Assembly: GCA_038056715.1 (NCBI GenBank)
Contig: JBBUEZ010000012.1
Span: 1-33,816 of the forward strand
Length of the DNA: 33,816 bases
Source: Patescibacteria group bacterium
Lineage (GTDB): Bacteria > Patescibacteriota > Minisyncoccia > Phycocordibacterales > JBBUEZ01
Direction: 5' to 3'
Of this stretch, positions 4,639 through 27,843 are shown piece after piece. The translations under genes were made by a program, and so were the position numbers. Numbering within the stretch: position 1 is the stretch's first letter; each line of letters starts with the position of its first letter. The notes beneath the pieces are model-generated. The model worked only from the letters and a program-made list of their open reading frames with translations, searched no databases and was not told where the DNA came from.

Positions 4639-5055
4639 ATGGCTACCATCAATCAACTTTCACGGCGCGGGAGAAAGACTCCGAAGAAACGTTCAAAGAC
4701 GGTTGCTTTGACGCGCGGTTTTAATACGATAAAAAATCGTCCCGTTTTTTACCCATCTCCGTTTAAGCGCGGAGTGTGCGTAAAAGTGTCTACAACCACA
4801 CCAAAAAAGCCGAACTCCGCGGTGCGTAAAATTGCGCGCGTGCGTCTCACCAACGGCATGGAGGTCACCGCTTATATTCCTGGCATCGGGCACAATTTGC
4901 AGGAACACTCCGTTGTGGTGCTTCGCGGCGGTCGCGTGAAAGACCTCACCGGCGTGCGGTATCATATCGTGCGTGGCGTCTTGGACGCTTCCGGGGTTGA
5001 AAAGCGCATGAAAGGCAGAAGTCAGTATGGGGCGAAGCGTCCGAAGGGAAAATAA
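4639..5055 (+). CDS. rpsL: 30S ribosomal protein S12
   Basis: [26 protein letters not shown]. Confidence 0.99.
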
Positions 5056-5153
5056 CACGACACCAATCCACGAATAAAGGCGAATGACACAAATAAAAAA
5101 GACAAAAGGAGAGCCATTCGTGTCATTCGACCTCATTCGTAACCATTCGTATC
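5055..5153. repeat. CGAAT-family hairpin element (rpsL/rpsG)
   Basis: ACACGACACCAATCCACGAATAAAGGCGAATGACACAAAT ... ATTCGTGTCATTCGACCTCATTCGTAACCATTCGT. Confidence 0.85.
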
Positions 5154-5621
5154 ATGAGATATAAAATAAAAAACAGGAATATTCCAGGACCCGACCGCGT
5201 GCATAATTCCGATAAATTAAACAAATTTATCAATTACATCATGTGGGACGGCAAAAAGAACGCGGCACGAAGTGTCGTGTATGGCGCGCTTGATGTCATC
5301 AAAACAAAAGGCGAAGAAAAACCTTTTGAGATTTTTGAAGCGGCGATTAAAAATGTCGGCCCAACAATGGAGGTGCGCTCTCGTCGCATCGGAGGCGCGA
5401 ACTATCAGGTGCCGCGCGAAGTGCGTCCGGAACGCCGCGGCGCGCTTGCGATGCGCTGGATTGTTGCCGCCGCGCGCGGAAAAAAGGGGCGCCCCATGGC
5501 GGAGCGGCTCGCTGATGAAATCCTTTCCGCAAGCAAGGGCGAGGGCGAGGCGATCAAGAAGCGCGACAATGTGCATAAGATGGCGGAAGCAAATAAAGCG
5601 TTTGCCCATTTTACTTGGTGA
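5154..5621 (+). CDS. rpsG: 30S ribosomal protein S7
   Basis: EVRSRRIGGANYQVP, MAEANKAFAHF. Confidence 0.99.
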   Translation: MRYKIKNRNIPGPDRVHNSDKLNKFINYIMWDGKKNAARSVVYGALDVIKTKGEEKPFEIFEAAIKNVGPTMEVRSRRIGGANYQVPREVRPERRGALAMRWIVAAARGKKGRPMAERLADEILSASKGEGEAIKKRDNVHKMAEANKAFAHFTW

Positions 5622-5669
5622 TTTCAAGCCCGAAGGGCGCAGAAATCCCAATTGTAAAATGGAGCATCC

Positions 5670-5813
5670 CGCACTTATTTTGCAGAATGTTTGCATGAAT
5701 GCCGATAGTGATAAGACGGAATCGGCTTTATTATGCGAAACGCGCGTGCCGAATAGGCACATTCCTCGTTGGGCGAAGCGCTTCGCCACGAAATGTTTTT
5801 CAAAATAAGTGCG
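5670..5813. repeat. Structured element with 13-bp perfect terminal inverted repeats
   Basis: CGCACTTATTTTG (5670-5682) / CAAAATAAGTGCG (5801-5813) enclosing three internal hairpins. Confidence 0.75.
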
Positions 5814-5837
5814 CGAATAAGCATTTCATTCGGAAAG

Positions 5838-5898
5838 TTTTTAAGAATTTTTAATTTTTACTTGTAATTTTGCATTTTGATTTTTAACTTTTGCATTT
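5838..5898. repeat. Solo right arm, TTTTGCA/TTTTTAA-family tandem
   Basis: TTTTTAATTTTTACTTGTAATTTTGCATTTTGATTTTTAACTTTTGCATTT just before fusA. Confidence 0.55.
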
Positions 5899-5902
5899 GT
5901 TT

Positions 5903-8044
5903 ATGACCCGCGACTATCCATTAAATAAGGTAAGAAACTTCGGAATCATCGCCCATATTGACGCTGGGAAAACGACGACGTCTGAGCGTATTTTGTTCTA
6001 CACGGGCGTGTCGCACAAAATCGGCGAAGTGCACGAAGGGGCGGCAATCATGGACTGGATGGAACAAGAACAGGAGCGTGGTATTACGATTACCTCGGCT
6101 GCAACGACCTGTTTCTGGACACCGACATACGCATCGGGTGATGCGGGCGCGAAATGCCGTTTTAATATTATTGATACACCGGGGCACGTGGATTTCACCG
6201 TGGAGGTGGAGCGATCTTTGAAAGTGCTTGACGGCGGCGTTGTCGTTTTTGACGGCGTTGCAGGCGTGGAACCACAATCTGAAACCGTGTGGCGCCAAGC
6301 GGACAAATATTCCGTTCCGCGCATTTGTTTCATAAATAAACTTGACCGTACCGGCGCATCATTTGATCGTTCATTTAAATCAATTTTGGAACGGCTTACA
6401 AAGAGCGCGGTTCGTTTTCAGATTCCGATCGGAGAGGAAGACGCGCACGAAGGCGTTGTGGATCTTTTGAGAATGAAAGCGTATCTCTTTGAAGGGGACA
6501 TGGGCAATAAGGTTGTGGAAAAAGATATTCCCGAGAATTTGAAGGCTGATGCGGAAAAATATCATGCGGAATTGGTGGAGAAGATTGTTGAGAACGATGA
6601 GAAATTGATGGAGCGCTATTTGGGTGGCGAAACTATTTCCATAGATGAATTGAAGAAAGCGACACGCGAAGCGGTGCTCGCATACAAACTCGTTCCGGTC
6701 TTTACCGGCTCCGCGCTTAAGAATAAAGGCGTACAACTTATTCTTGACGCGGTGGTTGATTATCTCCCATCTCCGGTTGATGTTCCGCCAATCAAAGGCG
6801 TGAATCCGCATACAGACGCCGAAGAGACACGCGAGACGACAGATACTGCGCCGTTTGCGGCAATTGCGTTTAAGATCCAGACGGACCCGTTTGTGGGACA
6901 ACTCACATATTTCCGCGTGTATTCGGGAACGCTTTCCGCGGGCTCGTATGTATACAATTCTCGCACGGGTGATCGCGAGCGTGTGGGGCGCATCGTGCGC
7001 ATGCATGCCAATGATCGTGAAGAAGTGAAGCAGGTATTTGCGGGAGAAATTGCCGCGGCTGTGGGTATGAAAAACACGATTACCTCCGACACACTCTGCG
7101 ACGAGAACAACCCTATTCTCCTTGAAACAATCCATTTCCCCGAACCGGTCGTGTCCATGAAAATTGAACCGAAGACGAAAGCCGATCAGGAAAAGATGGG
7201 GATGGCGCTCTCGCGTCTTTCGCAAGAAGATCCGACATTCCGCGTGAAGACGGATCCGGAAACGCTTGAGACGATTATTTCAGGCATGGGAGAATTGCAT
7301 TTGGAAATTATTGTGGATCGCATGAAGCGCGAGTTTACAGTTGAGGCGAATGTCGGCAAGCCCCAGGTTGCGTATCGCGAGACGATTACGGGCACTGCGG
7401 AGACAGAAGGCAAATACATCAAGCAGACTGGAGGGCGCGGTCAATATGGACACGTGCGCATCAGAATGAAACCGATGGATAAAAATGTGGACATAGATGA
7501 CCTTCCGAAGAACGTGAAGCGCGATGAACATTTTGAATTTATAAACGCCATCAAGGGAGGCGTGATACCGCAAGAATATATTCCTGCTGTTGAGAAAGGG
7601 TTGAAAGAGGCGATGGGCAAAGGAATTCTTGCAGGATTTCCGATCGTGGACATTTCCGTGGAACTCTACGATGGTTCGTATCACGATGTGGACTCTTCAG
7701 AAATCGCATTTAAGATTGCGGCATCCATGGCATTCCAAGACGCGTCAAAGAGAGCGAAGCCTGTTATTTTGGAACCGATGATGAAAGTGGAAGTGGTGAT
7801 GCCGGAGAAATTCATGGGCGATATCACCGGCAGTCTCTCGTCCAAACGCGGGCAAATTGAAGGCATGGAAGATCGGGGTATGTTGAAAGCGATCAAAGCG
7901 CTTGTTCCGCTTTCCGAAATGTTCGGCTACACGACCGCGCTCCGCTCCATGACCGAAGGCCGCGGCACCTCCACCATGGAATTCTCCCACTACGCGATCG
8001 TGCCGAATAACGTGGCGGAAACTATCATCGCCGGGCGCAAGTAG
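5903..8044 (+). CDS. fusA: Elongation factor G
   Basis: [36 protein letters not shown]. Confidence 0.99.
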
Positions 8045-8048
8045 GAAA

Positions 8049-8079
8049 AGTATATGGGGTTAGTATAAGGATAAAGATA
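8049..8079. repeat. Solo left arm, AGTAT-family
   Basis: AGTATATGGGGTTAGTATAAGGATAAAGATA; shares AGTATAAGG with 27770. Confidence 0.45.
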
Positions 8080-8081
8080 AT

Positions 8082-8115
8082 AAAAACCGCCAAGGGGTAT
8101 CCTTGGCGGGGTTTT
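8082..8115 (+). terminator. Intrinsic terminator after fusA
   Basis: CCGCCAAGG-ggtat-CCTTGGCGG followed by GGTTTT. Confidence 0.8.
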
Positions 8116-8118
8116 AAT

Positions 8119-8147
8119 TTGACTATGTCTTCTCTGTGGTGTAGTCT
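8119..8147 (+). promoter_or_regulatory. Putative sigma70 promoter of the inserted gene
   Basis: TTGACT-17-TAGTCT. Confidence 0.55.
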
Positions 8148-8203
8148 CCGAGTAGATTACAAGGCGTATTCTGCGCCGTGGCTCATTGAGGAGGAAGAAG
8201 AGT

Positions 8204-8821
8204 ATGTCAAAATCTAAAAGGCAGTTGCCGCCCATTGATTGCGCTCACTTAAACCTAGTTGAGGAGATGATTCGGACCACACTTGGAAGCGATGTGTCGG
8301 AACGAACCATGGATTCGTTATCTGCACATTACGGTAGGGGAAAAGGCATTTCAAATGGAATAAATCATTTTCAGACCGCTATCCGGGGAACAGCAAAAGG
8401 AATTCAGGATTTGTTTATTGAGAGCGTGAAGAAAGGGGACACCATCCTCGCTTTGGCATTACTGCGCGCAAAACCAGAATCTGTCGGTGCCGATCTTTTT
8501 GCCGAACACCTTGAGGCTATTCTTGTCCACATCATGGAAAGCGGGTGTACTTCGAGTCTGGACACGGTGTGGACTTTGCTGCCGATGGATATCAAGGAAG
8601 TACTCGGGGAAAAACTCCCCTACATTTGGTGGACGAAAGGCCATCATGTAAGCGCGGTTGTCATTGCACAAAGCGACAAGGTTCCGGCGAGCGATGCTAT
8701 GTTGTTTGCGCTGGGTATCATCTCTGAATACTCGGATTGGGCAGAGCTCATCGTCCAGAAACAGTGCGCGAGAGTGGAAGTGCGTGGAAATGTTGAGATG
8801 CACCAACAGTCCACATCGTGA
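8204..8821 (+). CDS. Hypothetical protein inserted between fusA and tuf
   Basis: About 205 aa ORF with GAGGAGG SD, own promoter and terminator; no family recognised. Confidence 0.7.
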   Translation: MSKSKRQLPPIDCAHLNLVEEMIRTTLGSDVSERTMDSLSAHYGRGKGISNGINHFQTAIRGTAKGIQDLFIESVKKGDTILALALLRAKPESVGADLFAEHLEAILVHIMESGCTSSLDTVWTLLPMDIKEVLGEKLPYIWWTKGHHVSAVVIAQSDKVPASDAMLFALGIISEYSDWAELIVQKQCARVEVRGNVEMHQQSTS

Positions 8822-8859
8822 CTCCCCGGGGATTAGGCCCCCCGAAATTTCTTCTCCAG

Positions 8860-8889
8860 GCGCCTCGGCTTCGGTCGGGCGCTTTTTTA
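8860..8889 (+). terminator. Intrinsic terminator
   Basis: GCGCCTCGGC-TTCG-GTCGGGCGC-TTTTTT. Confidence 0.75.
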
Positions 8890-9040
8890 TTGCGCGCGGG
8901 TACCTGAACAATAATCAAAATCGAATTGGGGACAATCTGGACTACACATTTAGTAACGGCCGTTACTAAATGTGTAGAACGGTCTTTGCTGGAGGGAATG
9001 ATGTGCTCAAAAAAGTCTTTGGTATCGTAACCACAGGGTG

Positions 9041-9067
9041 TTGACTTGCAAACGACATTGCTATAAT
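9041..9067 (+). promoter_or_regulatory. Putative tuf promoter (extended -10)
   Basis: TTGACT at 9041 and TGcTATAAT at 9059-9067. Confidence 0.6.
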
Positions 9068-9212
9068 ATAGTGAAACCGCTTTGTGCGCATTTTTTGTTT
9101 GCTTACCTAAAAAAGTGCACCGGTTTATTAACATTATTCATTTTAGTTGCGCTCGTTGCGTTGGTTTGGGCACTACTCGCGCCTCAAACTATAGCAATGA
9201 GCGAAAAACACT

Positions 9213-10406
9213 ATGGCAGAAGCATTTAAGCGTGAAAAGCCCCATGTGAACGTCGGCACCATCGGTCACGTTGACCACGGGAAGACGACGCTCACCGCGG
9301 CTATTTTGAATTCTCTCCATTTGTCCGGCCAGAAGGTCCGCATGGAGAAAATTGACCAGATTGACAACGCGCCGGAAGAGAAGGCGCGCGGTATTACGAT
9401 TTCTCTCCACCACTCGGAGTATGAGACGGCGGCTCGCCACTATGCGCATATTGACGCGCCCGGCCATGCCGACTACATCAAGAACATGATTACCGGCGCC
9501 GCGCAGATGGACGGCGCGATTTTGGTTGTTGCTGCGACTGACGGCGTGATGCCACAGACGCGCGAGCATATCCTGCTTGCAAAGCAAGTCGGAGTACCGA
9601 AAATTATCGTCTTCTTGAACAAGGTGGACATGGTGGACGATCCTGATCTTATTGATCTCGTTGAGGAAGAAGTACGCGAGGTTCTCACGAAATATGGATT
9701 TGACGGAAAAGAAACGCCGATCATTCGCGGTTCCGGCTTGAAAGCGCTGGAAGCCAAAGATGCAAATGATGAGTGGGTAAAAAAGGTTCTTGAACTCATG
9801 AATGCTTTGGATACCTACATTCCCGTTCCGGAGCGCGAGATAGACAAGCCGTTCTTGATGCCCGTGGAAGACATTTTCTCCATTGAAGGGCGCGGTACCG
9901 TGGTGACGGGCCGTATTGAGCGCGGAAAGGTGAAGGTTGGCGAGGAAATTGAGATAGTTGGACTCAAAGATACCGCGAAAACAACGGTAACCGGCATTGA
10001 GATGTTCAACAAATCGCTTGATGAAGGCATGGCGGGCGACAACGCCGGCATTCTTTTGCGCGGCACAAAGAAAGAAGATATCACTCGCGGGCAGGTGCTC
10101 GCAAAGCCGGGGACGGTTACTCCGCACACGGAGTTTGAATCGGAAGTGTACATCTTGAAGAAAGAGGAAGGCGGCCGCCACACTCCGTTCTTCACCGGTT
10201 ATAAGCCGCAGTTCTACATGCGCACCACCGACGTGACCGGAGAGGTAACATTGAAAGAGGGCGTGGAAATGGTCATGCCGGGCGACACGGTCACATTCAA
10301 GGTGAAGTTGGTCGCGCCCGTTGCTCTTGAAGAGAAACAGCGCTTCGCAATTCGCGAGGGCGGCAAGACCGTCGGCGCGGGAGTTGTGACAAAGGTTGTT
10401 GCGTAA
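9213..10406 (+). CDS. tuf: Elongation factor Tu
   Basis: [34 protein letters not shown]. Confidence 0.99.
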
Positions 10407-10418
10407 ATGTAGATACCA

Positions 10419-10521
10419 ACACGACACCAATCCACGAATGAAAACGAATGACGCAAATAAAAGAGACAAATGAGAAAGCCATTCGTGTCATTCGCGCGCT
10501 CATTCGTAATTTGTGTCGTGT
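10419..10521. repeat. CGAAT-family hairpin element (tuf/rpsJ)
   Basis: ACACGACACCAATCCACGAATGAAAACGAATGACGCAAAT ... ATTCGTGTCATTCGCGCGCTCATTCGTAATTTGTGTCGTGT. Confidence 0.9.
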
Positions 10522-10530
10522 ACATATAGT

Positions 10531-10908
10531 ATGACAAAAATAAAAAAAACTCCGGTGCGCGCAAAAAAAGCCGTATCTGCAAAAGCGCCCAAAATGGAAG
10601 ATATCGGCAAACTCCGCATTCGCGTACGCGCGTATGAAAACAAGGTATTGGATGCGTCTGTCAAACAGATCATTGATACCGCGATGCGCTATGACGCGCG
10701 CGTGGTGGGGCCGGTACCGCTCCCCACGGAAATTAAAAAGTACACGGTAAATCGTTCAACGTTCGTGCACAAAAATGCGCGCGAGCAGTTTGAAATGCGC
10801 GTGCATAAGCGAGTTCTTGATATCGTCAATCCCACTCCTAAAATCGTTGAAGCGCTCACGAACATGAACCTTCCTTCCGGAGTAAATGTGGATGTAAAAA
10901 TGAGTTAA
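10531..10908 (+). CDS. rpsJ: 30S ribosomal protein S10
   Basis: GPVPLPT, REQFEMRVHKR. Confidence 0.98.
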   Translation: MTKIKKTPVRAKKAVSAKAPKMEDIGKLRIRVRAYENKVLDASVKQIIDTAMRYDARVVGPVPLPTEIKKYTVNRSTFVHKNAREQFEMRVHKRVLDIVNPTPKIVEALTNMNLPSGVNVDVKMS

Positions 10909-11005
10909 CGCGGCACCAATTACGAATGAGCGCGAATGACACGAATACCACGCAGAGAAATTTTTATTCGTGTCATTTGTTTTCATTCGCGGATTTGTGT
11001 TGTGT
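10908..11005. repeat. CGAAT-family hairpin element (rpsJ/rplC), arms in inverted order
   Basis: ACGCGGCACCAATTACGAATGAGCGCGAATGACACGAAT ... ATTCGTGTCATTTGTTTTCATTCGCGGATTTGTGTTGTGT. Confidence 0.9.
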
Positions 11006-11014
11006 TTTAAAAAA

Positions 11015-11629: not shown

Positions 11630-11710
11630 AGTCACAAAGTCTATAAAGTTCATAAAGTAAAAAGCAGACGGAGACTTTACGGGCTTTCGACTTTATAGAC
11701 TTTATGGACT
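11620..11710. repeat. AAAGT-family hairpin element (rplC/rplD)
   Basis: AAGTCTGTAAAGTCACAAAGTCTATAAAGTTCATAAAGT ... ACTTTACGGGCTTTCGACTTTATAGACTTTATGGACT. Confidence 0.9.
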
Positions 11711-11718
11711 AAATAATC

Positions 11719-12384: not shown

Positions 12385-12388
12385 TCAG

Positions 12389-20098: not shown

Positions 20099-20151
20099 GG
20101 GCAAAATGGCGTATAGTAGATGGAGATTTTTACAGAGAGAGGAAGGGAACA

Positions 20152-20721: not shown

Positions 20722-20818
20722 GGTCCTTTTTTTTTGCGCTAAAATCGCAGTTGCATTACTACGGCTACCTTTGATAGAATCTTTTCTGGAAAGAGCGTAT
20801 AAACAGGAGAAGGCGCAC

Positions 20819-21904
20819 ATGAAAAAACACGAAACGCAGTCCTGGAAGGCGCGCGTTGCCTGCAACCAGGCGGAGAGAGTTGCACATACTGCGCGATGGG
20901 TTCTTACGATAGACGGTAAAGGGGCAGTCCTCTCGGTTGTGCAAAATAAACCGCATCAATTGGATGTAATGGCGGTGATAGGACCGGCGGAGGCGGGTGG
21001 GATTCGGTACGAACAAACCGTCCTCGTGGAGATTGGCATAAGGAGGGGGAAACCGTATTCACAGGGAAAGCCGATAGATTCACTCACGGGCAAAAGGAAA
21101 AGGATTTTTACACGGCAGAAATTTGCGACGATTGATCTTCCTCGTCTTTGCCGGATGTGGAAGAGATTGGAGTCTGTGATGGTGGAAGAGGCATCAGGCA
21201 TGTCGCGCGTCGGTATTCTATTCCAACGCGGGAAACAGGAACTTCTGGATGGAATCGTATTTACGATTTCAGAAAAAGACCCGCTGATGCTCGCTGCCAT
21301 ACTCCAATCGGAGAGGCGAATGAGAACAAATCCGCTTGATGAGGATATGGAGAAAGCAGCGATTTTTTTGAGGAGAACGCTGGAACCGCACAATGATCTA
21401 TCTTTCGCGCCAAAAAAAGACATCGTCCGTGCTGTAGGACGGAAAAGGTCTGGACTTGAGAAGGCGTTATGGTTTCTGAATCATCGTTGCTTCTTGCCCC
21501 ACCAGCGGTATCTCGTTGAGAAACTGCTTTGGGAAACCCCCGCGTGGGACATATACGCACGGCTCATGCGTGATTTTCTAAGCGATACGCACGGAACATA
21601 CACTGAACCGGACCCGCGCGTTTCCGTATGGGGAGCACTTCTTGAATTACGGAACGTTCCGACATTCAATGGGGTGTATGTCTGGACAAGGAAAGAGTCA
21701 TTCCATCGGCGGCAAAAACGAATCAGAGGAAACGAAGGTCGCCGTGCGTATTTTTTCAGTGATGTTCTTACGCTTTACTTCACTCCGGAGGAGATTGTGG
21801 AGGAAGTGAGGATGGAGAGGAAAGGAGATTTGATCCTTCCCGACGGTGCGCGGAGAACTATCCGTCGGTATCAGGAGAACAAGAGCGACGATATTCCATT
21901 TTAA
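20819..21904 (+). CDS. Hypothetical protein
   Basis: About 361 aa ORF, AGGAG SD, upstream TTGCAT-18-TAGAAT promoter; ends DDIPF (SSB-like acidic tip). Confidence 0.75.
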   Translation: MKKHETQSWKARVACNQAERVAHTARWVLTIDGKGAVLSVVQNKPHQLDVMAVIGPAEAGGIRYEQTVLVEIGIRRGKPYSQGKPIDSLTGKRKRIFTRQKFATIDLPRLCRMWKRLESVMVEEASGMSRVGILFQRGKQELLDGIVFTISEKDPLMLAAILQSERRMRTNPLDEDMEKAAIFLRRTLEPHNDLSFAPKKDIVRAVGRKRSGLEKALWFLNHRCFLPHQRYLVEKLLWETPAWDIYARLMRDFLSDTHGTYTEPDPRVSVWGALLELRNVPTFNGVYVWTRKESFHRRQKRIRGNEGRRAYFFSDVLTLYFTPEEIVEEVRMERKGDLILPDGARRTIRRYQENKSDDIPF

Positions 21905-21937
21905 AGGCCGTCTTTCGCATCCTGCGAAAGACGGCCT
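21905..21937. terminator. Bidirectional terminator hairpin
   Basis: AGGCCGTCTTTCGCA-tcc-TGCGAAAGACGGCCT, 15-bp perfect stem between convergent genes. Confidence 0.85.
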
Positions 21938-21938
21938 C

Positions 21939-22994
21939 TTATTTTTCTCGAAGGACAAACAATCCTTCCTGATAATAGTCCCACGAGGGGACTCCGTGTC
22001 GGCATGTGTCACATGCAGGGCATCGCCCGCATGTCGTTGCCTCGCGGCGCAAAGCATTCCCCGTTTTCATCCATCCGGAATGATTGAACTCCGCTTCCTC
22101 CGGAAAAGGGAGTTTCAGGAACACGTCTTTTTTGCGTACGGCGGGGTCAACACCATTTTTTCTCATATGCCTACGACGGGACTCCATCTTTTCCCCCGTT
22201 ATATCAAACCCCTGATTCCACGGGCTCTTATTGCAGAGCGCGGAGGATAAGAGCCACAGTGCGTCGCACACCTTTGACATCGGATACTCGGGATGCCGTT
22301 CGTGAAAATATGCGAGCGCGTCAAGCGCCGCCACTTGAACATCGTCACAGTATCGAAACGGCACCGTGTCCGACACGATAACTCCGTTTGCCGTCAGTAC
22401 GCGAATGATGTGGAAATCAATCGCCATACTGAACTTTGCATCCGGAATCAGTCTTTGGTCCAAGAGAAAGTAAGTGAGCATCCCCGACATTTTTCTTTGG
22501 AATCCGTGAAATCCCGCGAAGCCGTTCGCGCGTTCTTTCTTCCCGACGCGTTTATTCGCGACGATTTCGTGTATTGCACGGTAGTCTTCCATTCCGGCAT
22601 AGATGGCGCGCGGATCGTTCGCATAATGCTCGGCAAGGAGCTGCGAGTTATCAATCCAAAACTGCGCAATTTGTCCGGAGTGGTAATTGATCTTGCCGCG
22701 CAGGTATTTCTCAAGGTCTTCCTTGTTCTCATTCTGCGCCGTGTTTGGCACGAATAGATTCGGCCGCTCATTGCGCATTTCCGCGAGCCTGCGAATTGCC
22801 ATCGTACTGTTGATGGCGCCACGCATGTAATGGCAGGCGTAGAACCAGAATTGGCTCTGCTCAAGACGATTCCCGTCTATTCGTACCGAATCTTGAGGCC
22901 GGAGCGCATTCTCAAACGGAAACTCGTTTGACATGAGCGCTTCGGCGATAGCGAGTATCACCTCTATCGCTCTTTCATAGTTTACAATGAACAT
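21939..22994 (-). CDS. Divergent HhH-GPD superfamily (endonuclease III-like) protein with a Cys cluster
   Basis: FHGFQRKMSGML (HhH with Lys), AIDFHIIRV (VDTHxxR-like), DALWLLSSALC ... CGRCPACDTC. Confidence 0.65.
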   Translation of the reverse strand: MFIVNYERAIEVILAIAEALMSNEFPFENALRPQDSVRIDGNRLEQSQFWFYACHYMRGAINSTMAIRRLAEMRNERPNLFVPNTAQNENKEDLEKYLRGKINYHSGQIAQFWIDNSQLLAEHYANDPRAIYAGMEDYRAIHEIVANKRVGKKERANGFAGFHGFQRKMSGMLTYFLLDQRLIPDAKFSMAIDFHIIRVLTANGVIVSDTVPFRYCDDVQVAALDALAYFHERHPEYPMSKVCDALWLLSSALCNKSPWNQGFDITGEKMESRRRHMRKNGVDPAVRKKDVFLKLPFPEEAEFNHSGWMKTGNALRREATTCGRCPACDTCRHGVPSWDYYQEGLFVLREK

Positions 22995-23255
22995 GGGGTT
23001 ACCCTTTTTAATTGTCTGCCCGCAGGTTATCAGAAGAGGGGGGCACGTGTCCACATCTAGTCTTGTCCAACATCCGGTATTTGACAGAGGGGAACCTCGC
23101 CCCGTCCCCTGTATATTTGTTGCGGGTTTTTGAAAAGCATGATAGCATACATCTCGTGCTGCTTTAATCCGTCTTTCTCCTTGTGGGCTGCCCTACAAGA
23201 AAAAAGATGTGATATTGAGTAGGCACAGGCGCAAAATGCGCTCCGCTTATTGCTT

Positions 23256-23441
23256 ATGGCAAAAACATCCACGTACGTCCGATCTCTGAAGACACCGAAA
23301 TTTTCATCGCGCATTGTTCTGCGCTGTTTTCGGTGCGGGAGAAAGCGCGGATATATGCGCGATTTCGGACTATGCCGCATCTGCTTCCGCGAACTTGCAA
23401 GCGAAGGAAAGATTCCCGGAATAAGAAAATCTTCTTGGTAA
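23256..23441 (+). CDS. rpsZ: 30S ribosomal protein S14, zinc-binding type Z
   Basis: [26 protein letters not shown]. Confidence 0.97.
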
Positions 23442-23446
23442 TGATG

Positions 23447-23534
23447 AGTCAAAAGTAAAAAGTCCGTAAAGTCCGTAAAGTTGGCACAAAAGTTTTGACT
23501 TTATAGACTTTGGACTTTACAGACTTTATAGACT
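23447..23534. repeat. AAAGT-family hairpin element (rpsZ/rpsH)
   Basis: AAAGTCCGTAAAGTCCGTAAAGT ... ACTTTATAGACTTTGGACTTTACAGACTTTATAGACT. Confidence 0.9.
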
Positions 23535-23540
23535 AAATCT

Positions 23541-23927
23541 ATGGATCCCATTTCAAACATGTTGAATAGCATCAAGAACGCCGGAGCGGTAAAGCTCCCG
23601 AGTGTTGTCGTGCCGCATTCAAATCTTTGTTTTGCTGTCGCGGAACTTTTAGCGCGAGAAGGATACGTTGCGTCTGTGGCGAAAAAAGGGAAGAAGACGC
23701 GCAAATATATTGAGGTCGGTGTTTCGTATGTCGGCGCTCGGCCGCGCGTGACGGGCGTACAGCGCCTTTCCAAGCCGTCTCGGCGTATGTATATGGGCGT
23801 TCGCGATATGCGTCCCGTTCGGCAGGGGTATGGACTTCTGGTCCTTTCAACCCCGAAAGGTCTTATGACGGGAAGTGAGGCACGGAAAGAACACGTTGGA
23901 GGAGAGGTGTTATTTAAGATTTGGTAA
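23541..23927 (+). CDS. rpsH: 30S ribosomal protein S8
   Basis: MDPISNML, SKPSRRMY, LSTPKG, VGGEVL. Confidence 0.98.
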   Translation: MDPISNMLNSIKNAGAVKLPSVVVPHSNLCFAVAELLAREGYVASVAKKGKKTRKYIEVGVSYVGARPRVTGVQRLSKPSRRMYMGVRDMRPVRQGYGLLVLSTPKGLMTGSEARKEHVGGEVLFKIW

Positions 23928-23936
23928 TGGCTTTGC

Positions 23937-24119
23937 CCACCGTTTCAGTGCTGAACGAAGTTAAGCGCTGAAACGGTGGATGCAAAACATTATCCAGCAC
24001 CTATTTTCCGGCACATAGCGCATCGTCTGTGGTCATACAACTACGGATGAGACATGAAAATAAAAATGTGTCTGCAAAACACATTTTTGAAACGATTTGT
24101 GAGGGAAAATAGGTGCTGG
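23937..24119. repeat. Long hairpin plus structured element with 16-bp perfect terminal inverted repeats
   Basis: CCACCGTTTCAG..CTGAAACGGTGG (23937-23979); CCAGCACCTATTTTCC (23994-24009) / GGAAAATAGGTGCTGG (24104-24119). Confidence 0.75.
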
Positions 24120-24203
24120 GTGCTCAATGTTGTAGTTATTTTTAACTCGCATTGGGCATTGCCTATCGGCAGGCAGGCCGTAAAAAATAAACAACATTGG
24201 CAC

Positions 24204-24737
24204 ATGAGTAGAATCGGCAAACAACCTATAGTGATCCCCGAAAAAACCTCCGTAACGCGAGAGGGGGATATGATCGTGGTGAAAGGACCGCTTGGAGAAT
24301 TGAAGCGGGAGTTTCTTCCGGATGTGGCAATCACGATCGGTGATGGAGTTATCACGCTTGCTCCCGCGGATGAAAAGCCGTTTTCAAAAATCCTGTGGGG
24401 CACATATGCCTCTCATCTTCGGAATATGATTACAGGTGTGAATGTACCGTTCAAGAAAGCGCTTTTTATTGAGGGTGTTGGATTCCGCGCCGAGGTTTCA
24501 GGAAAGAAGCTCGTGCTTTCCATCGGATTCTCGCATAAGGTGGAAATGCCGATTCCCGAAGGTATTGCCATGACGAGCGAGAAAGGGGCGATGACGATCA
24601 CGGGGATTGATAAAGAACTCGTCGGACAATTTGCGGCAAAAGTGCGCGCGAAGAAAAAACCGGAGCCGTATAAAGGAAAGGGCATCAGATATGAAGGCGA
24701 AGTGATACGACGCAAGCAGGGGAAGAAGACAGCGTAA
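24204..24737 (+). CDS. rplF: 50S ribosomal protein L6
   Basis: MSRIGKQP, PEPYKGKGIRY. Confidence 0.99.
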   Translation: MSRIGKQPIVIPEKTSVTREGDMIVVKGPLGELKREFLPDVAITIGDGVITLAPADEKPFSKILWGTYASHLRNMITGVNVPFKKALFIEGVGFRAEVSGKKLVLSIGFSHKVEMPIPEGIAMTSEKGAMTITGIDKELVGQFAAKVRAKKKPEPYKGKGIRYEGEVIRRKQGKKTA

Positions 24738-24742: not shown

Positions 24743-24787
24743 AACTAAGAACTAAGAACTGAGAACTGAGAACAGGGGACAGAAAAC
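24743..24787. repeat. AGAACT-family solo left arm (rplF/rplR)
   Basis: AACTAAGAACTAAGAACTGAGAACTGAGAACAGGGGACAGAAAAC, 7-nt period. Confidence 0.75.
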
Positions 24788-25145: not shown

Positions 25146-25241
25146 AGTAAGTAGTAAATAGTTGGTAGTGAGTAGCAAAAACACACAAAACGAAATATTA
25201 CACACTACACACTACTCACTACACACTACTCACTACAAACT
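25146..25241. repeat. AGTAGTG-family hairpin element (rplR/rpsE)
   Basis: AGTAAGTAGTAAATAGTTGGTAGTGAGTAG ... CACTACACACTACTCACTACACACTACTCACTACAAACT. Confidence 0.88.
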
Positions 25242-25249
25242 AAATCATC

Positions 25250-25915
25250 ATGACAACAACGACACCACAAGCGCATACGGGAGGAAACAATAGGGGCCAT
25301 AGGGGAGCATCTTTTTCCGGTCGTTCGCCGCGCGGAGGAAGAGAGGGCGGCAACCGCGGAGGAAGAGGCGGGAAATTAGGCGGCGGTCCGCATCGCGGAG
25401 GGCGCCCGAAGTTTTTTGAAAAGCCGGAATTTGACCAAAAGATTATTGATACGAAACGCGTGACGCGCGTGGTTTCAGGTGGGCGCCGATTCAATTTCAA
25501 AATCATCATGGTTGTGGGGGACAGAAACGGACGCGTGGGTGTTGGAACCGGAAAAGGAGGAGACACCGCGCTTGCGATAGAAAAAGCGCTTAGGAGCGCG
25601 AAACGAAACATTCTAACGATTTCTCGCACGAAAGACGGCTCCATTCCGCACGAGGTTTCGGCGAAATATTCTTCCGCACGCGTACGTATCATGCCGGCAT
25701 CCGGCCGCGGGTTAATCGCCGGAAGCTCGCTTCGTGTCGTGCTTGACCTTGCGGGCGTGCGAGACGTTGTTGCGAAAGTTATCTCTCCGTCAAAAAATTC
25801 ACTTAACATTGCGCAAGCGGCAGTAGAGGCGCTCAAAACAATATCATCAAAAACTAAAAGGCACGACACCAATACACGAATGAAAACGAATGACACCAAT
25901 GAAAACACCGCTTAG
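25250..25915 (+). CDS. rpsE: 30S ribosomal protein S5 (RGG-rich N-terminal and repeat-derived C-terminal extensions)
   Basis: RVTRVVSGGRRF, VGVGTGK, GLIAG. Confidence 0.97.
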   Translation: MTTTTPQAHTGGNNRGHRGASFSGRSPRGGREGGNRGGRGGKLGGGPHRGGRPKFFEKPEFDQKIIDTKRVTRVVSGGRRFNFKIIMVVGDRNGRVGVGTGKGGDTALAIEKALRSAKRNILTISRTKDGSIPHEVSAKYSSARVRIMPASGRGLIAGSSLRVVLDLAGVRDVVAKVISPSKNSLNIAQAAVEALKTISSKTKRHDTNTRMKTNDTNENTA

Positions 25916-25957
25916 TATTCGCGGTATTCGCGCGCATTCGTAATTAGTGCCATGTGT
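25862..25957. repeat. CGAAT-family hairpin element overlapping the rpsE 3' end
   Basis: CACGACACCAATACACGAATGAAAACGAATGACACCAAT ... ATTCGCGGTATTCGCGCGCATTCGTAATTAGTGCCATGTG. Confidence 0.88.
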
Positions 25958-25967
25958 ACATATTATT

Positions 25968-26420
25968 ATGCAATTACATCAACTGAAAAGAAAGAATCCG
26001 AATAAGAAAAGTCCGCGCGTCGGGCGCGGAGGCAAGCGCGGAAAAACATCCGGACGCGGAGGAAAAGGGCAGACCGCGCGCGCAGGGCATAAGGTGCGCC
26101 CGGAAATGCGCGATACCATCAAGAAACTCCCGAAGCGTAGAGGGTATGGCAAGAATCGCGCGCGAACGGTGTACACTGATCGCCCGCGTCCGGTAATCGT
26201 GAACGTGGATGTGTTGGAGCGCTTGTACAAGGACGGAGAAACGGTTGTGGCGGCGACTCTCTTTGAAAAAGGAGCGATTCGCCGCAAAGGCGGGCGTATT
26301 CCTTCCGTAAAGATTTTGGGGAATGGCGCGCTTACCAAAAAGTTATCAATTTTCGGATGCGCGGTATCAGCGGAGGCGCAGAAGAAGATTGAAGCGGTAG
26401 GAGGAACAATCAAACAGTGA
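25968..26420 (+). CDS. rplO: 50S ribosomal protein L15
   Basis: RVGRG..GKTSGRGGKGQTARAG, VKILGNG. Confidence 0.97.
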   Translation: MQLHQLKRKNPNKKSPRVGRGGKRGKTSGRGGKGQTARAGHKVRPEMRDTIKKLPKRRGYGKNRARTVYTDRPRPVIVNVDVLERLYKDGETVVAATLFEKGAIRRKGGRIPSVKILGNGALTKKLSIFGCAVSAEAQKKIEAVGGTIKQ

Positions 26421-26479
26421 GTAGTAGTTAGTAAGTGGTGGGTAGTAAAGAAAAATACTCGTTACCCACTGCTCACTCA
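26416..26479. repeat. AGTAGTG-family degenerate hairpin (rplO/secY)
   Basis: AGTGAGTAGTAGTTAGTAAGTGGTGGGTAG ... TACTCGTTACCCACTGCTCACT. Confidence 0.7.
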
Positions 26480-26485
26480 TCACGT

Positions 26486-27757
26486 ATGCAATCTTTTCTT
26501 CAAAAACTAAAAACGCTCATGCTCGACTCGGTGCTTAGAAAGCGCATCTTGTTTATTTTCTTTGCGCTTGTCGTATTCCGCGCGCTCGCATCCATTCCCA
26601 TTCCCGGTGTTGATGTGAGCCGTTTTGGAGAACTTCTTTCTCAAAATCAATTTTTGGGACTTTTGAACATTTTTTCCGGAGGCGGTCTTAACAATTTGTC
26701 GCTTGTCATGTTGGGTGTTGCCCCATATATCACCGCGTCTATTATTATGCAGTTGGGGACGATTCTCTCAAAGCGCTTGAAAGCGCTCTATCATGAAGAG
26801 GGTGAGGCGGGGCGCAAGCGCTTCTCCCAATATTCACGACTGCTCTCTGTCCCGCTTGCGATCACGCAAGGGTTCGGTCTTATTTTACTGCTTACGCGCC
26901 AGGGCATCATTGCGCCATTCTCTCCATTTGACTGGGTTGTCAATCTTGCGGTGGTGGTTGCAGGGTCACTTCTTATTATGTGGATAGGCGAACTCATCAG
27001 CGAATTTGGCATCGGAAACGGCGTTTCAATCATTATTTTTGCCGGCATTGTTGCGTCGTTGCCGGGGACTTTGGCGCAACTCGCGTTCTCCTTTGATATA
27101 GCGCAGATTCCGCTGTATATCGGATTTGTCGCCGCCGCGGTCGCCGTTGTCGCCGGAGTCGTATTTATCACTGAATCAGAACGCCCGATCCCCGTTACCT
27201 ATGCGAAACGCGTGCGCGGCAACAAAATGTATGGCGGCGTGTCAACCTATATTCCGCTTCGGGTGAATCAGGCGGGCGTGATCCCTATCATTTTTGCTCT
27301 TTCCATCTTGCTTATCCCGCAGATGATTGCCGGGTTTGTGGCGCAATCGGGAAATGAAATGATTCGCGGTATCGCCGAGGCAGTCGTTTCCTTTCTTAAT
27401 AATGGCTGGTTTTATTCCAGTTTTTACTTCATTCTTGTATTTTTGTTCACCTATTTTTATACCGCCGTTACCTTTGACCCGAACGCGATTGCGACGAATC
27501 TTCAGAAGGGCGGCGCGTTTATTCCGGGGGTGCGTCCGGGCGCCCAGACATCAGAACACATTGCGCATATTCTGACTCGCATTACGTTTGTCGGCGCGCT
27601 TTTCTTGGGACTTATCGCAGTATTGCCGCTCGTCATGCAGGCAATCACCGGCATTACCGCGCTTGCAATCGGCGGCACCGCGCTCCTCATCGTTGTATCG
27701 GTTGTCATTGACCTCATCAAAAAGATAGACGCCCAGCTTTCGCTTCGTGAATATTAA
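26486..27757 (+). CDS. secY: Preprotein translocase subunit SecY
   Basis: PYITASII, GIGNGVS, AGVIPIIFA, IPGVRPG, GGTALLIVV. Confidence 0.99.
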   Translation: MQSFLQKLKTLMLDSVLRKRILFIFFALVVFRALASIPIPGVDVSRFGELLSQNQFLGLLNIFSGGGLNNLSLVMLGVAPYITASIIMQLGTILSKRLKALYHEEGEAGRKRFSQYSRLLSVPLAITQGFGLILLLTRQGIIAPFSPFDWVVNLAVVVAGSLLIMWIGELISEFGIGNGVSIIIFAGIVASLPGTLAQLAFSFDIAQIPLYIGFVAAAVAVVAGVVFITESERPIPVTYAKRVRGNKMYGGVSTYIPLRVNQAGVIPIIFALSILLIPQMIAGFVAQSGNEMIRGIAEAVVSFLNNGWFYSSFYFILVFLFTYFYTAVTFDPNAIATNLQKGGAFIPGVRPGAQTSEHIAHILTRITFVGALFLGLIAVLPLVMQAITGITALAIGGTALLIVVSVVIDLIKKIDAQLSLREY

Positions 27758-27769
27758 AAGAAAGTGTAC

Positions 27770-27843
27770 AGTATAAGGGATTGGCATGAGGGCGCGCCGA
27801 CACGGACACGCGGCTCCCTTATACTAATACCTTATACTTATTC
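27770..27843. repeat. AGTAT-family hairpin element (secY/adk)
   Basis: AGTATAAGGGA ... TCCCTTATACTAATACCTTATACTTATTC. Confidence 0.7.

Follow-up and report, generated by a model that had tools for sequence, protein, structure and literature searches.

The window, a stretch of 33,816 nucleotides, comprises positions 1–33,816 of contig JBBUEZ010000012.1 (assembly GCA_038056715.1) from a Patescibacteria group bacterium of the Phycocordibacterales. The host is a groundwater bacterium with a genome of 650 kb that is 84% complete and is designated G000 in the comparisons.

Tandem-unit elements in the ribosomal gene junctions

Arrays of 7–10 nt tandem units are present in 20 of the 25 junctions from S12 to Adk, as tallied by eye after ten over-long start calls had been corrected. 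Such start calls are caused by the repeats. Sixteen of the array-bearing junctions hold two-armed foldbacks, and four hold single arms. An automatic criterion, which demands one 5-mer at least three times at 6–13 nt spacing, detects arrays in 15 of the 24 intergenic regions of the ribosomal stretch. The elements are listed below by their positions on the forward strand of the window, with RNAfold z scores computed against 100 dinucleotide shuffles per junction.

5056–5153, S12–S7: CGAAT-family (F1) foldback directly 3′ of the S12 TAA stop; z −5.2
5838–5902, S7–EF-G: lone T-rich arm of the TTTTGCA/AAAATG family, F9-like, ending just 5′ of the EF-G start at 5903
8049–8078, downstream of EF-G: lone A-arm of the AGTATAAGG family (F7), then an intrinsic-terminator-like hairpin at 8087–8109
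10420–10520, EF-Tu–S10: F1 foldback with arm types alpha..beta; z −5.6
10909–11004, S10–L3: inverted F1 foldback (beta..alpha) directly after the S10 TAA, L3 start at 11015; z −6.5
11620–11710, L3–L4: AAAGTC-family (F2) foldback, initial units overlapping the final L3 codons and TAA; z −6.9
12389–12482, L4–L23: CAAT-family (F3) foldback; z −2.1
12865–12903, L23–L2: solo F1 A-arm directly after the TAA, no fold; a strain variant has one more 9-nt unit behind 12887
16209–16336, S19–L22: F1 foldback gamma..delta (16209–16300) and four unpaired extra T-arm units (16303–16336); z −6.1
16701–16830, L22–S3: F3 (CAAT) foldback, S3 start at 16839; z −2.9
17505–17590, S3–L16: F2 foldback directly after the TAA, with arm periods of 9 nt and 7–9 nt; z −4.5
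18527–18605, S17–L14: GTAGTGA-family (F5) element, the A-arm encoding the final S17 residues and TAG; T-arm at 18576–18605, L14 start at 18617
18991–19070, L14–L24: TAGGGT-family (F4) foldback with heptamer units; z −6.7
19383–19497, L24–L5: F1 foldback sharing a near-identical T-arm, but not the A-arm, with the 16209 element; z −3.9
23442–23534, S14–S8: F2 foldback with AAAGT units from 23447; z −5.3
24743–24775, L6–L18: solo A-arm of the GAACT(A/G)A heptamer (F6), no fold
25146–25242, L18–S5: F5 foldback directly after the TAA; z −5.6
25862–25946, S5–L15: F1 element, A-arm (25862–25900) within the S5 ORF and encoding the tail TNTRMKTNDTNENTA; T-arm at 25916–25946, L15 start at 25968
26416–26483, L15–SecY: F5-like foldback with the L15 TGA in the first unit, SecY start at 26486; z −2.9
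27770–27838, SecY–Adk: AGTATAAGG-family (F7) foldback; z −4.8
3599–3655, before the range described earlier: lone CAAT-type T-arm upstream of the gene at 3656

A preliminary description, made from the letters of the sequence, had reported about 20 occupied junctions out of 25, and many unit families with one architecture at nearly every junction; the present tally bears this out. Its seven CGAAT, three AAAGT, two CAAT and three GTAGTGA elements were all recovered, as were the single TAGGGT (18991) and GAACT (24743) elements, the two of AGTATAAGG (8049 and 27770) and the lone T-arm at 5838.

Thirteen of the 25 folded junctions reach z ≤ −3.9, and 11 of these 13 are tandem-unit elements, with z from −3.9 to −6.9. 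Three two-armed elements fold more weakly (L4–L23, z −2.1; L22–S3 and L15–SecY, both z −2.9). No fold is predicted at single-arm junctions or where one arm is positioned within the upstream ORF (z +1.3 to −1.1). In most two-armed elements of the window, the base of the hairpin lies 0–12 nt from the stop and 1–23 nt from the start. A search of the whole window against Rfam gave no matches at the gathering score. Genome-wide, 119 arrays with an exact 6-mer repeated three times were found, compared to two in a shuffled genome, and a looser 5-mer rule gave 208 compared to 46; therefore, chance is excluded as the origin of the arrays.

All 25 tandem-unit palindromes called genome-wide are positioned between co-directional genes, at most 45 nt (median 8) from the upstream stop and up to 389 nt from the next called start. 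Arrays are present in 15/24 gaps of the ribosomal stretch; the corresponding figures are 41/221 for co-directional gaps elsewhere, 1/33 for gaps between divergent genes and 3/33 for those between convergent genes (Fisher p of 1e-5 and 0.012 in the occupancy comparisons). Of 38 F1 arms, 12 are directly preceded by a TAA, whereas the background frequency is 1.6%. The description of the elements as inserts between genes holds for most of them, which are intergenic, but arms also extend into the 3′ ends of S5, S17, L3 and L15. There the units encode the C-terminal tails of S5 and S17 and the stops of L3, L15 and S17; the genome G004, from another family of the order, is devoid of the unit-encoded S5 and S17 tails. 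Stop triplets occur at 7.0 per 100 nt in 5′ arms and at 3.6 in 3′ arms, and only six of the 25 5′ arms have a stop in all three frames.

The A-rich arm had been said to lie always 5′ on the mRNA strand. A bias of this kind exists, with 19 A-first and 4 T-first tandem-unit palindromes (2 ties), and it is also present in other intergenic palindromes (34 versus 12, 6 ties). As a sign of transcription the order is uninformative, because a palindrome of A-arm, loop and T-arm reads alike on both strands.

Families, copies and arm pairing

The F1 family has a non-periodic terminus, CACGACACCAAT, and a 39-nt arm consensus with about 22 arm sites in G000. The copies at S12–S7 and EF-Tu–S10 have arms and loop in common, the copy at S10–L3 is the inverse of that at EF-Tu–S10, and arm types pair alpha with beta or gamma with delta in every complete copy. 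The CGAAT family thus consists of dispersed whole-element copies, with a shared terminus, arm asymmetry, loops and both orientations. This argues against the earlier proposal that the elements arise otherwise than by ordinary REP/MITE copying, and so does the presence of the families at other junctions of distant genomes. Complete solo arms are common, and elements have exchanged whole T-arms (16209 and 19383).

F1, F2 and F5 are patchily distributed over 151 genomes of the order and are multi-copy in a minority of them. A 12-mer of F1 is multi-copy in G000, G004, G094, G038 and G104, each genome with its own sub-variant, whereas F2 is multi-copy in 11 and F5 in four. The non-periodic full-length consensus of F1 and F9 is kept between genomes. 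F2 has 32 matches in G134 and none in its congener G019. Comparable junctions mostly hold different families in G000, in the congener G001 and in G004: F2, F9 and F9 at L3–L4; F4, F9 and F1 at L14–L24; F2, F9 and none at S3–L16. Fixation and vertical conservation site by site, which the preliminary description had also named as an argument against its own reading, are therefore not observed, and no described family matches the elements. Junctions around L3 are plain in 9 of 11 relatives, and a density of at least 0.6 arrays per kb is reached at only 5 of the 80 related ribosomal loci. At least eight unit families are present in G000 and at least seven in G004, which also contains a run of about 12 heptamer units, in which the 13-nt pattern GTAGTGAGTAGTG is matched 11 times in succession with overlaps. 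On contig C2 (6341–6405), a single junction combines the A-arm of one family with the T-arm of another. The core motifs CGAAT, AAAGTC and AACTA are also found in other Parcubacteria, with other spacings, and in several of these T-rich arrays such as (A/C)ACTA repeats lie directly 5′ of ATG.

The two arms of an element are no better matched to each other than to foreign arms. Identity is 0.76 with the own partner and 0.81 with non-partners, indicating no partner-specific compensation. Mismatches show no excess of G·U over A·C on the sense strand, either overall (96 versus 112) or in the tandem-unit elements of the window (20 versus 36, a hand tally of per-element rows). The number of units in one arm does not correlate with that in the other (Spearman −0.28), and the two counts differ by at least two in 14 of 25 elements. 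A lack of compensatory pairing, which the preliminary description had named as an argument against its own reading, is thus observed in part.

Length changes by units were seen directly: a variant with 9 additional nucleotides, exactly one unit, occurs at L23–L2 in contigs of four sequencing runs, so units do undergo slippage. At S14–S8, one Logan contig (run X3; at least 85% likeness) joins position 23441 to 23535 via a single A, and the element is absent. The flanks of the elements read TAA...TTA and continue the palindrome; in these flanks and the one empty-site contig available, no direct repeat was seen and no target-site duplication could be defined. Assemblies are broken by the repeats, with contig ends at 12864, 16288 and 18543–18569.

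Origin and persistence of the elements

The elements behave like miniature dispersed repeats and not like a new molecular machine. In the reading that we favor, with a probability of about one half, they represent several families of non-autonomous MITE/REP-like foldback repeats, which are copied, grow by slippage and are tolerated in operon junctions. Each element measures approximately 60–140 bp and is built of two arms in which one short core motif is arrayed in opposite orientations. Whole elements, or whole arms of them, are copied to new sites and between genomes, and the copies come to lie directly behind the stop of a gene whose downstream neighbor is co-directional. Replication slippage would then add or remove units in each arm independently, as is seen for the one unit at L23–L2. 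The elements are probably co-transcribed within operons, and their persistence may reflect the near-neutrality of foldback inserts at such junctions. It is plausible that folding keeps the stop and the next start together. The A-rich 5′ arm, with about twice the stop triplets of the T-rich arm, may limit the tail when an insertion removes the stop of a gene.

The translation context could contribute to this tolerance. The 3′ tail of 16S rRNA is GGAWTATTTCAA instead of CCTCC in 21/21 genomes of relatives, and that of G000, GTGAAATATTTCAA, is likewise free of CCTCC. No SD sequence precedes the 28 starts examined, and Rho_RNA_bind is above the cut-off in 0/31 genomes. In an order with neither an anti-SD/SD system nor Rho, there may be nothing for a long untranslated spacer to upset.

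As for the copying agent, the transposase-like genes found were limited to four of the RAYT-like Y1 HUH type (Y1_Tnp/NF047646-like), all outside the window. The window itself contains no transposase or reverse transcriptase, as had been stated before. The 84%-complete genome yielded no match to DDE_Tnp_1, TnpB or RVT_1 and no autonomous parent element, and the only tyrosine recombinase found in it is Xer-like in size. None of the RAYT-like genes is flanked by tandem-unit arms; their flanks are four other short, ordinary REP hairpins. The same genome has a classical REPIN family, TATGGAAGTCAGACTTCCATA, a short imperfect palindrome unlike the tandem-unit arms. Y1_Tnp is present in 20 of 31 relatives, irrespective of whether elements are seen. 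These results on transposase genes weigh against the dispersed-repeat reading, as do the lack of a definable target-site duplication, the frequency of complete solo arms, the dependence of the empty site on a single contig and the small share of 5′ arms (six of 25) with a stop in all three frames. The core motifs at other spacings in Parcubacteria fit a function of the motifs themselves equally well, and the abutment on stop codons could reflect deletion of spacer DNA instead of targeting.

Alternatively, the hairpins could be RNA elements selected by the host, although this appears unlikely. They would function in polycistronic mRNA, in coupling by unmasking the next start, in 3′ protection or in RNase III processing; the cores would be contact sites for a conserved RNA-binding factor or rRNA, and spread would occur by gene conversion, not transposition. 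The limitation to co-directional junctions, the rarity in divergent and convergent gaps, the strong overrepresentation in the operon with the highest expression (15/24 versus 41/221) and the closeness of most hairpin bases to stop and start are consistent with such a role. The order lacks anti-SD and Rho, and internal cistrons would therefore need another initiation route; the (A/C)ACTA-type arrays directly before ATG and the T-arm exchange between 16209 and 19383 also agree with it, and the same roles have been proposed for cyanobacterial STRR hairpins (PMC2670836). However, the mismatches show no G·U excess, complementarity is not partner-specific and unit numbers are uncorrelated between arms. 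The palindromes are strand-symmetric, so they are not adapted to any one transcript. At L23–L2 and L6–L18 a single arm is tolerated, the 9 of 11 relatives manage without elements around L3, dense arrays are confined to the 5 of 80 loci, and presence varies within one genus.

It is quite unlikely that one machinery moves all of the families and places foldback DNA exactly 3′ of the stops (TAA^) of transcribed co-directional genes. Such a machinery, RAYT-like HUH proteins or an unannotated protein, would recognize a periodic stem-and-bubble hairpin and a core motif on single-stranded DNA. The elements would then form a stop-codon-targeting mobile class, which by saturating the junctions would have become part of translation coupling in a lineage lacking anti-SD and Rho.

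Very unlikely is the origin suggested in the preliminary description, structure-guided or reiterative synthesis, in which arrays would form in situ through copying of a short template and subsequent snap-back, with a common design but no common descent. Many unit families of one design in one genome, their accumulation in the same few genomes (at least eight in G000, at least seven in G004), the long perfect array of GTAGTGAGTAGTG, the mixed-family junction on C2 and the length polymorphism in unit steps could be products of such synthesis. Ordinary slippage accounts for the unit steps, though, and F1 and F9 keep a non-periodic full-length consensus between genomes, with arm asymmetry that is inherited, not regenerated. 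Snap-back predicts partner-matched arms with equal unit numbers, neither of which is found, and the 84%-complete genome has no RVT_1 match.

Least probable are DNA-level protein-binding arrays (uptake-signal-like, nucleoid or recombination sites) with inversion as a by-product, as with DNA uptake sequences in inverted pairs behind genes: conserved cores with variable spacers and copy number, the 7–10 bp spacing, the recurrence of cores across the order, the ComEC gene in the window and the missing wobble signature of RNA selection would fit, but at least eight unrelated cores in a 650-kb genome would require an equal number of binding proteins, most relatives and even congeners are devoid of any given core, and the arrays are tied to stops of co-directional genes instead of being evenly spread.

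Comparison with known repeats and implications

The closest analogue appears to be the cyanobacterial STRR hairpin. A 1995 paper by Jackman and Mulligan reportedly names "highly variable but structured intergenic regions" in its title. STRR belong to filamentous cyanobacteria, whereas the host here is of a different phylum, its nearest named relatives being Parcubacteria-type MAGs; its units are 7–10 nt long and presumably differ in sequence from STRR heptamers. Further differences are the defined non-periodic consensus of F1 and F9, the 20/25 occupied ribosomal junctions and the arms entering ORF ends. A secondary account describes STRR hairpins, for example at hupS–hupL, as usually 7 bp tandem units of several families per genome between cistrons, with transcript stability or translational coupling as proposed functions (PMC2670836). 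As far as that account shows, tandem heptamer-scale units (periods 7–10 nt), several families, location between cistrons and hairpin formation are shared.

REPs are outlined in one source as 20–40 nt palindromes, two of which in inversion form a REPIN, mostly behind stops and in operons (PMC3116915). The present elements are similarly extragenic, multi-copy, imperfect palindromes of several families, mostly 3′ of stops, in a genome with RAYT-like genes. In contrast to REPs, each arm is a non-palindromic A-rich array with no internal palindrome, and 0/4 RAYT-like genes are flanked by tandem-unit arms.

Bacterial MITEs such as Correia and Nezha are small, have terminal inverted repeats, occur in both orientations and are patchy among relatives. 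The tandem-unit elements match them in size (50–500 bp range), terminal inverted repeats, whole-element copies of both orientations, patchiness, a possible empty site (S14–S8 contig), presence/absence polymorphism and non-orthologous positions in G000, G001 and G004. Unlike MITEs, they have no recognized target-site duplication, and neither a parent IS nor a DDE transposase was detected in the 84%-complete genome; each arm is itself a tandem array that gains or loses units, and arms often occur singly in complete form. The palindromic elements of Rickettsia are tolerated inside coding sequences of a reduced genome, where they add residues. Reduced genome and added residues are common to both, but here only ORF 3′ ends are affected (those of S5, S17, L3 and L15), the majority of copies being intergenic.

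Integron attC sites are likewise imperfect hairpins directly behind each ORF of an array with a common architecture rather than sequence; however, no conserved R′/R″ core sites were noticed by eye, the genome yielded a single tyrosine recombinase, and the genes are fixed ribosomal ones, not cassettes. TIGR arrays of CPR bacteria and phages consist of 36 nt units with two 8–9 nt spacers, in a single array adjacent to a Tas gene (PMC12045711). The imperfect tandem arrays with conserved and variable segments and the Parcubacteria-type genomes are alike, whereas the 7–10 nt units described here are dispersed at gene junctions as inverted pairs.

CPR/Parcubacteria genomes are viewed as streamlined. 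In this 650-kb genome, 80% of the junctions in the most conserved operon are occupied by repeats of at least eight families, which even supply stops and C-terminal tails of ribosomal proteins. The long-unexplained STRR hairpins may have here a second example that is phylogenetically remote from the first. Its lineage has no working SD/anti-SD pair, so that a role of such hairpins in serving or permitting translational coupling becomes testable by comparison. Since the families are conserved across genomes, change sites quickly and differ between congeners, they may be used to type strains and to trace horizontal exchange in groundwater CPR. For the same reasons they are a good place to seek an unrecognized mobilizing activity.

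Intrinsic terminators were considered and rejected, as none of the tandem-unit hairpins at 4600–24500 is among 48 terminator-like sites (G+C-rich stem and T run). The terminator-like sites in intergenic gaps are positioned at 8087, 15736, 20071, 20709 and 21905.

Tandem-unit elements at the ribosomal gene junctions

The genome G000, in which the window corresponds to C12:1-33816, comprises 649,881 bp in 46 contigs and is 84% complete. Among named relatives, its S3 protein is closest, at 59-71% identity, to those of Parcubacteria-type MAGs assigned to Candidatus Yonathbacteria, Nomurabacteria, Paceibacterota, and Minisyncoccia. Matching DNA comes from groundwater metagenomes of several studies, and in 13 runs from 4 studies at least half of the words sampled from the stretch are present. 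The plus strand carries str-S10-spc-type ribosomal clusters, identified using Pfam and NCBIfam, that extend from S12 (4639) to SecY, Adk, and Map. The clusters are split by two gene islands; these come with a promoter-like site (15777) and two hairpins resembling terminators (20071 and 21905). Ten longest-ORF starts in the window were too far upstream and were shifted using the usual N-termini as a guide; the correction matters because several right arms that seemed to be missing were inside over-called ORFs.

Gene islands within the ribosomal clusters (window coordinates)
13767-15845, island between L2 and S19
13905-14399, minus strand, ORF without family
14308-14652, DUF2283 protein
14845-15711, weak Sua5/YrdC-like ORF
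20053-23255, island between L5 and S14
20053-20721, ORF without family match
20771-21904, ORF without family match
21939-23054, minus strand, ORF without family match

The preliminary description had reported tandem-unit hairpins in most junctions of the operon, and reading every junction from S12 to Adk confirmed arrays of 7-10 nt units in 20 of the 25. Sixteen junctions are two-armed: an A-rich array is followed, after a loop, by a T-rich array with the core in reverse complement. Four contain a single arm (S7/EF-G, downstream of EF-G, L23/L2, and L6/L18). The array-free junctions are L16/L29, L29/S17, S8/L6, which has other palindromes, and the two islands. When each of the 25 junctions was folded and compared with 100 dinucleotide shuffles, 13 reached z <= -3.9, and tandem-unit elements account for 11 of these (-3.9 to -6.9). 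Folding is weaker at L4/L23, L22/S3, and L15/SecY (z -2.1 to -2.9) and absent where a junction has one arm or where one of its arms lies within an ORF. The S19/L22 element has four additional T-units without a pairing partner. No Rfam family matches anywhere in the window. From 4600 to 24500, no element resembles an intrinsic terminator, and terminator-like sites occur elsewhere.

Other features of the window lie outside this design. The 276-nt S8/L6 junction (23937-24199) contains three non-tandem palindromes (z -9.9), one of which has 27-nt inverted ends (CCAGCACCTATTTTCC...). Identical ends are present at S19/L22 of the congener G001 (L017), indicating that non-tandem foldback elements also hop between ribosomal junctions. 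A perfect 21+21 nt palindrome (ATCTCATTACTATCTTACTAT and its complement; z -7.9), not of the tandem-unit kind, is positioned at 29901-29942 between a hydrolase gene and a 939-aa ORF. ComEC/Rec2 is encoded as two ORFs with a 4-nt overlap, one (539-1822) for the competence domain and the other (1819-2676) for the metallo-beta-lactamase domain. A four-helix-bundle protein (TIGR02436; 3158-3598), of the kind known from 23S rRNA intervening sequences, is encoded just 5′ of a solo CAAT-type T-arm (3599-3655).

Genome-wide placement and arm order

Arrays of an exact 6-mer repeated at least three times number 119 in G000, compared to 2 in a shuffled genome, and a looser 5-mer rule yields 208 arrays versus 46 after block shuffling. 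Gene calls throughout the genome were made with a crude codon-usage caller, so that counts by location are approximate: 100 of the 208 arrays are intergenic, whereas called intergenic DNA makes up 17% of the genome, and arrays occupy 15/24 ribosomal gaps, 41/221 other co-directional gaps, 1/33 divergent gaps, and 3/33 convergent gaps (Fisher p 1.2e-5 and 0.012). All 25 significant tandem-unit palindromes of the genome lie between co-directional genes. Relative to the upstream stop, their starts range from -30 to +45 nt, with a median of 8, and up to 389 nt separate them from the next called start.

The A-rich arm had been described as always 5′ on the mRNA. A bias towards A-first order does exist (19 versus 4 T-first, 2 ties); nevertheless, a palindrome of A-arm, loop, and T-arm has the same form on both strands, and arm order therefore cannot show orientation to transcription. 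Other intergenic palindromes are also mostly A-first (34 versus 12, 6 ties), so the bias is not special to the tandem-unit families. Stop triplets are more frequent in the 5′ arms (7.0 per 100 nt) than in the 3′ arms (3.6), and stops in all three frames, true of 6/25 5′ arms, are weak as a design rule. A G-poor 3′ arm, as in a leader composition, was rejected, since G and C make up 18% each in both arms. At C2:6341-6405, an A-arm of the GTAGTGA family directly adjoins a T-arm of the CGAAT family, and this chimeric junction retains the A-then-T order despite the arms being unable to pair.

Copying, turnover, and origin of the elements

For the CGAAT family (F1), the arm consensus is 39 nt long, CACGACACCAAT-N2-3-ACGAAT-N5-6-CGAATGACACGAAT, and approximately 22 arm sites occur in G000. 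The likeness between the copies at S12/S7 and EF-Tu/S10 extends over arms and loop, and the S10/L3 copy is of the EF-Tu/S10 type, inverted. Arm types pair in a fixed manner (alpha/beta or gamma/delta), which identifies the bulges as inherited family features. The copies at 16209 and 19383 have T-arms identical over the 42 nt compared and differing A-arms, indicating that arm-sized tracts are also exchanged. F1 elements are dispersed copies, not local inventions.

Two polymorphisms were taken from Logan contigs at a likeness of at least 85%, a threshold that also drew in many contigs of other organisms; joints between copies of the same family were disregarded as repeat cross-joins. In the L23/L2 arm (at 12887), contigs of four runs share the same insertion of one unit, exactly 9 nt. 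At S14/S8, a single contig, from run X3, has only one A between the S14 stop (23441) and position 23535, which is 6 nt before the S8 start; the 93-nt AAAGTC-family (F2) element is thus absent from this contig, on which the empty site rests. An exact-pattern scan of metagenome contigs gave no match for the empty site.

The junctions around L3 are short and plain in 9 of 11 relatives; elements are present in G001 and in G004, a genome from another family of the same order. The operon of G004, and that of G001 up to the end of its contig, are as crowded as in G000, but the family at a given site is mostly a different one.

Unit families at corresponding junctions (F1, CGAAT; F2, AAAGTC; F4, TAGGGT; F5, GTAGTGA; F9, TTTTGCA/AAAATG)
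L3/L4: G000 F2, G001 F9, G004 F9
S3/L16: G000 F2, G001 F9, G004 none
L14/L24: G000 F4, G001 F9, G004 F1 single arm
L15/SecY: G000 F5-like, G004 F1
S17/L14: G000 F5, G001 F2, G004 F5

The families are patchily distributed across a sample of 151 genomes from the order. Multiple copies of the F1 12-mer occur in G000 (8), G004 (7), G094 (5), G038 (3), and G104 (3), compared to 0-2 per genome for the reversed control. The F2 pattern AAAGTC-N3-AAAGTC has at least four matches in 11 of the 151 genomes, among them G044 (34), G134 (32), G000 (32), G100 (19), G070 (17), and G001 (16), and none in G004, G094, G038, and G019, a congener of G134. The F5 pattern GTAGTGAGTAGTG is multi-copy in G004 (37), G035 (12), G000 (8), and G146 (4). 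Two families occur together in 2 of the 151 genomes besides G000, versus about 0.7 expected by our estimate if they were independent, a comparison of few cases. The F1 sub-variant differs from carrier to carrier; in G038 and G104, complete solo F1 arms often have a TAA on one side and a terminator-like hairpin on the other. The median array density of 80 named ribosomal loci is 0.19 per kb (0.07 in shuffles), and only five loci reach at least 0.6 per kb; the window has 1.07. The arrays of these loci have many cores, including CGAAT, AAAGTC, and AACTA at other spacings. In G094, a small palindrome is nested in two separate F1 arms (CCGCCAGCTGGCGG in L028 and CCAGCTGGCGG in L031), similar to the nesting of small dispersed repeats that has been reported for repeats of cyanobacteria.

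The best-supported account, to which we assign a probability of about 0.5, is that of MITE/REP-like foldback repeat families. Whole repeats would be copied from site to site and genome to genome, their arrays would then vary in length through slippage, and elements would build up just 3′ of the stop codons of co-directional genes. A selected role of the RNA in coupling, stability, or processing appears unlikely. It would agree with the placement at co-directional junctions and the enrichment in the ribosomal operon, but a wobble test in 61 co-directional palindromes revealed no bias (96 G.U-type versus 112 A.C-type mismatches), and six complete F1 copies contain no partner-specific covariation. 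F1 arms are 0.76 identical to their own partner and 0.81 to arms of other copies. Unit numbers are not balanced between arms (Spearman -0.28, n=25; they differ by at least two in 14 of the 25 palindromes), and many relatives have no elements. The preliminary description had proposed structure-guided or reiterative synthesis in place of REP/MITE copying; such de novo formation of arrays is very unlikely and is contradicted by the F1 consensus and arm asymmetry, both of which are inherited. That the elements are DNA-binding arrays is hardly credible.

The nearest described system is the cyanobacterial STRR hairpin, formed by 7-bp tandem units between cistrons, for which the function is unknown and coupling or stability has been proposed (PMC2670836), followed by REP/REPIN-RAYT (PMC3116915) and MITEs. 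The tandem-unit elements lack the features that define REPINs (PMC3116915) and TIGR (PMC12045711) and, between 4600 and 24500, those of intrinsic terminators. By eye, no conserved R″/R′ core sites of integron attC were noticed. The elements have the features of MITEs apart from a parent element, with no candidate among RVT_1, DDE_Tnp_1, and TnpB, and a recognized duplication: their flanks read TAA...TTA, in continuation of the palindrome, and no direct repeat was seen. Literature searches gave no account of such repeats in CPR and nothing relevant on anti-Shine-Dalgarno loss in CPR. The notable aspects are the density of elements in a streamlined genome, the retention of families across genomes while sites change rapidly, and the intrusion of elements into the ends of ribosomal-protein ORFs.

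Gene ends, translation background, and candidate mobilizers

TAA immediately precedes 12 of 38 F1 arms, compared to a background of 1.6%, and in the window F1 begins at +1 behind the stops of S12, S10, L23, and S19. The stop codons of L3, L15, and S17 come from units. The C-terminal residues of S17 and approximately 17 residues of S5 are likewise unit-encoded; in G004, both proteins end without such tails. Liang, Rudd & Deutscher reportedly attributed ribosome stalling to REPs located no more than 15 nt from a stop codon.

An SD-like purine run is absent before all 28 starts examined in the window. The 16S 3′ end of G000 (C25:1853-1930) reads ...GGTCGTG-AAATATTTCAA, with GUGAAAUAUUUCAA after helix 45, and that of the relatives (L038-L059; 21/21 genomes with a true 16S match) reads GGAWTATTTCAA, with GGAWUAUUUCAA after helix 45. 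The anti-Shine-Dalgarno CCUCC is absent from the 16S 3′ ends of G000 and the 21 relatives, which do not read GGATCACCTCCTT. Rho_RNA_bind (PF07497) had no match above the cut-off in G000 and 30 relatives (0/31 genomes), and judging from these sequences the order may lack Rho. A self-folding insert behind a stop would do little harm where SD-led initiation and Rho polarity are absent. As a specific cause of the elements, loss of the anti-Shine-Dalgarno or of Rho was rejected, because the losses are order-wide in the sample while the elements are patchy; traits common to the whole order provide a permissive background at most. In a complementarity check by eye, only CAAT (F3) and CATGAAA-type arms resemble the 16S 3′ tail. 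The model match to the G000 16S gene (C25:557-1866) begins only at position 803. The stretch from model position 1387 (C25:1220) to the conserved 3′ motif (1853) spans approximately 630 nt and suggests that about 500 nt are inserted in the 3′ domain.

RVT_1, DDE_Tnp_1, and TnpB have no match in the 84% complete G000, which has only one tyrosine recombinase. Four Y1_Tnp genes match the model of REP-associated tyrosine transposases with scores under the cut-off (E 1e-5 to 1e-12), and these RAYT-like genes are the only candidate transposase-like genes found. Short hairpins, a different one for each gene, flank these genes; tandem-unit arms flank none of the four. The presence of Y1_Tnp, the one gene compared with the elements across 31 genomes, is not discriminating as a correlate (20 of 31 relatives).

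RAYT-like genes in G000
C4:25176-25883
C6:6796-7500
C23:2681-3358
C38:855-1559

The C38 gene is flanked by a classical REP family with the 15-nt core GGAAGTCAGACTTCC, which has 28 matches at up to three mismatches, about 20 of them, in our reading, of the full TATGGAAGTCAGACTTCCATA type. REP/REPIN copies of this type are often paired approximately 60 nt apart and occur on C38:700-1650, C23:1-1950, C30:200-720, and others. Another repeat family of G000 has inverted ends CCCGTTAGAGA...TCTCTAACGGG around approximately 100 nt.

Copies of the CCCGTTAGAGA...TCTCTAACGGG family in G000
C2:12699-12864
C36:15776-15896
C42:6473-6589
C46:10050-10165

The palindrome ACCCTGCACGTATACGGTAC is present on contigs C9, C16, C26, and C43 of the same genome.
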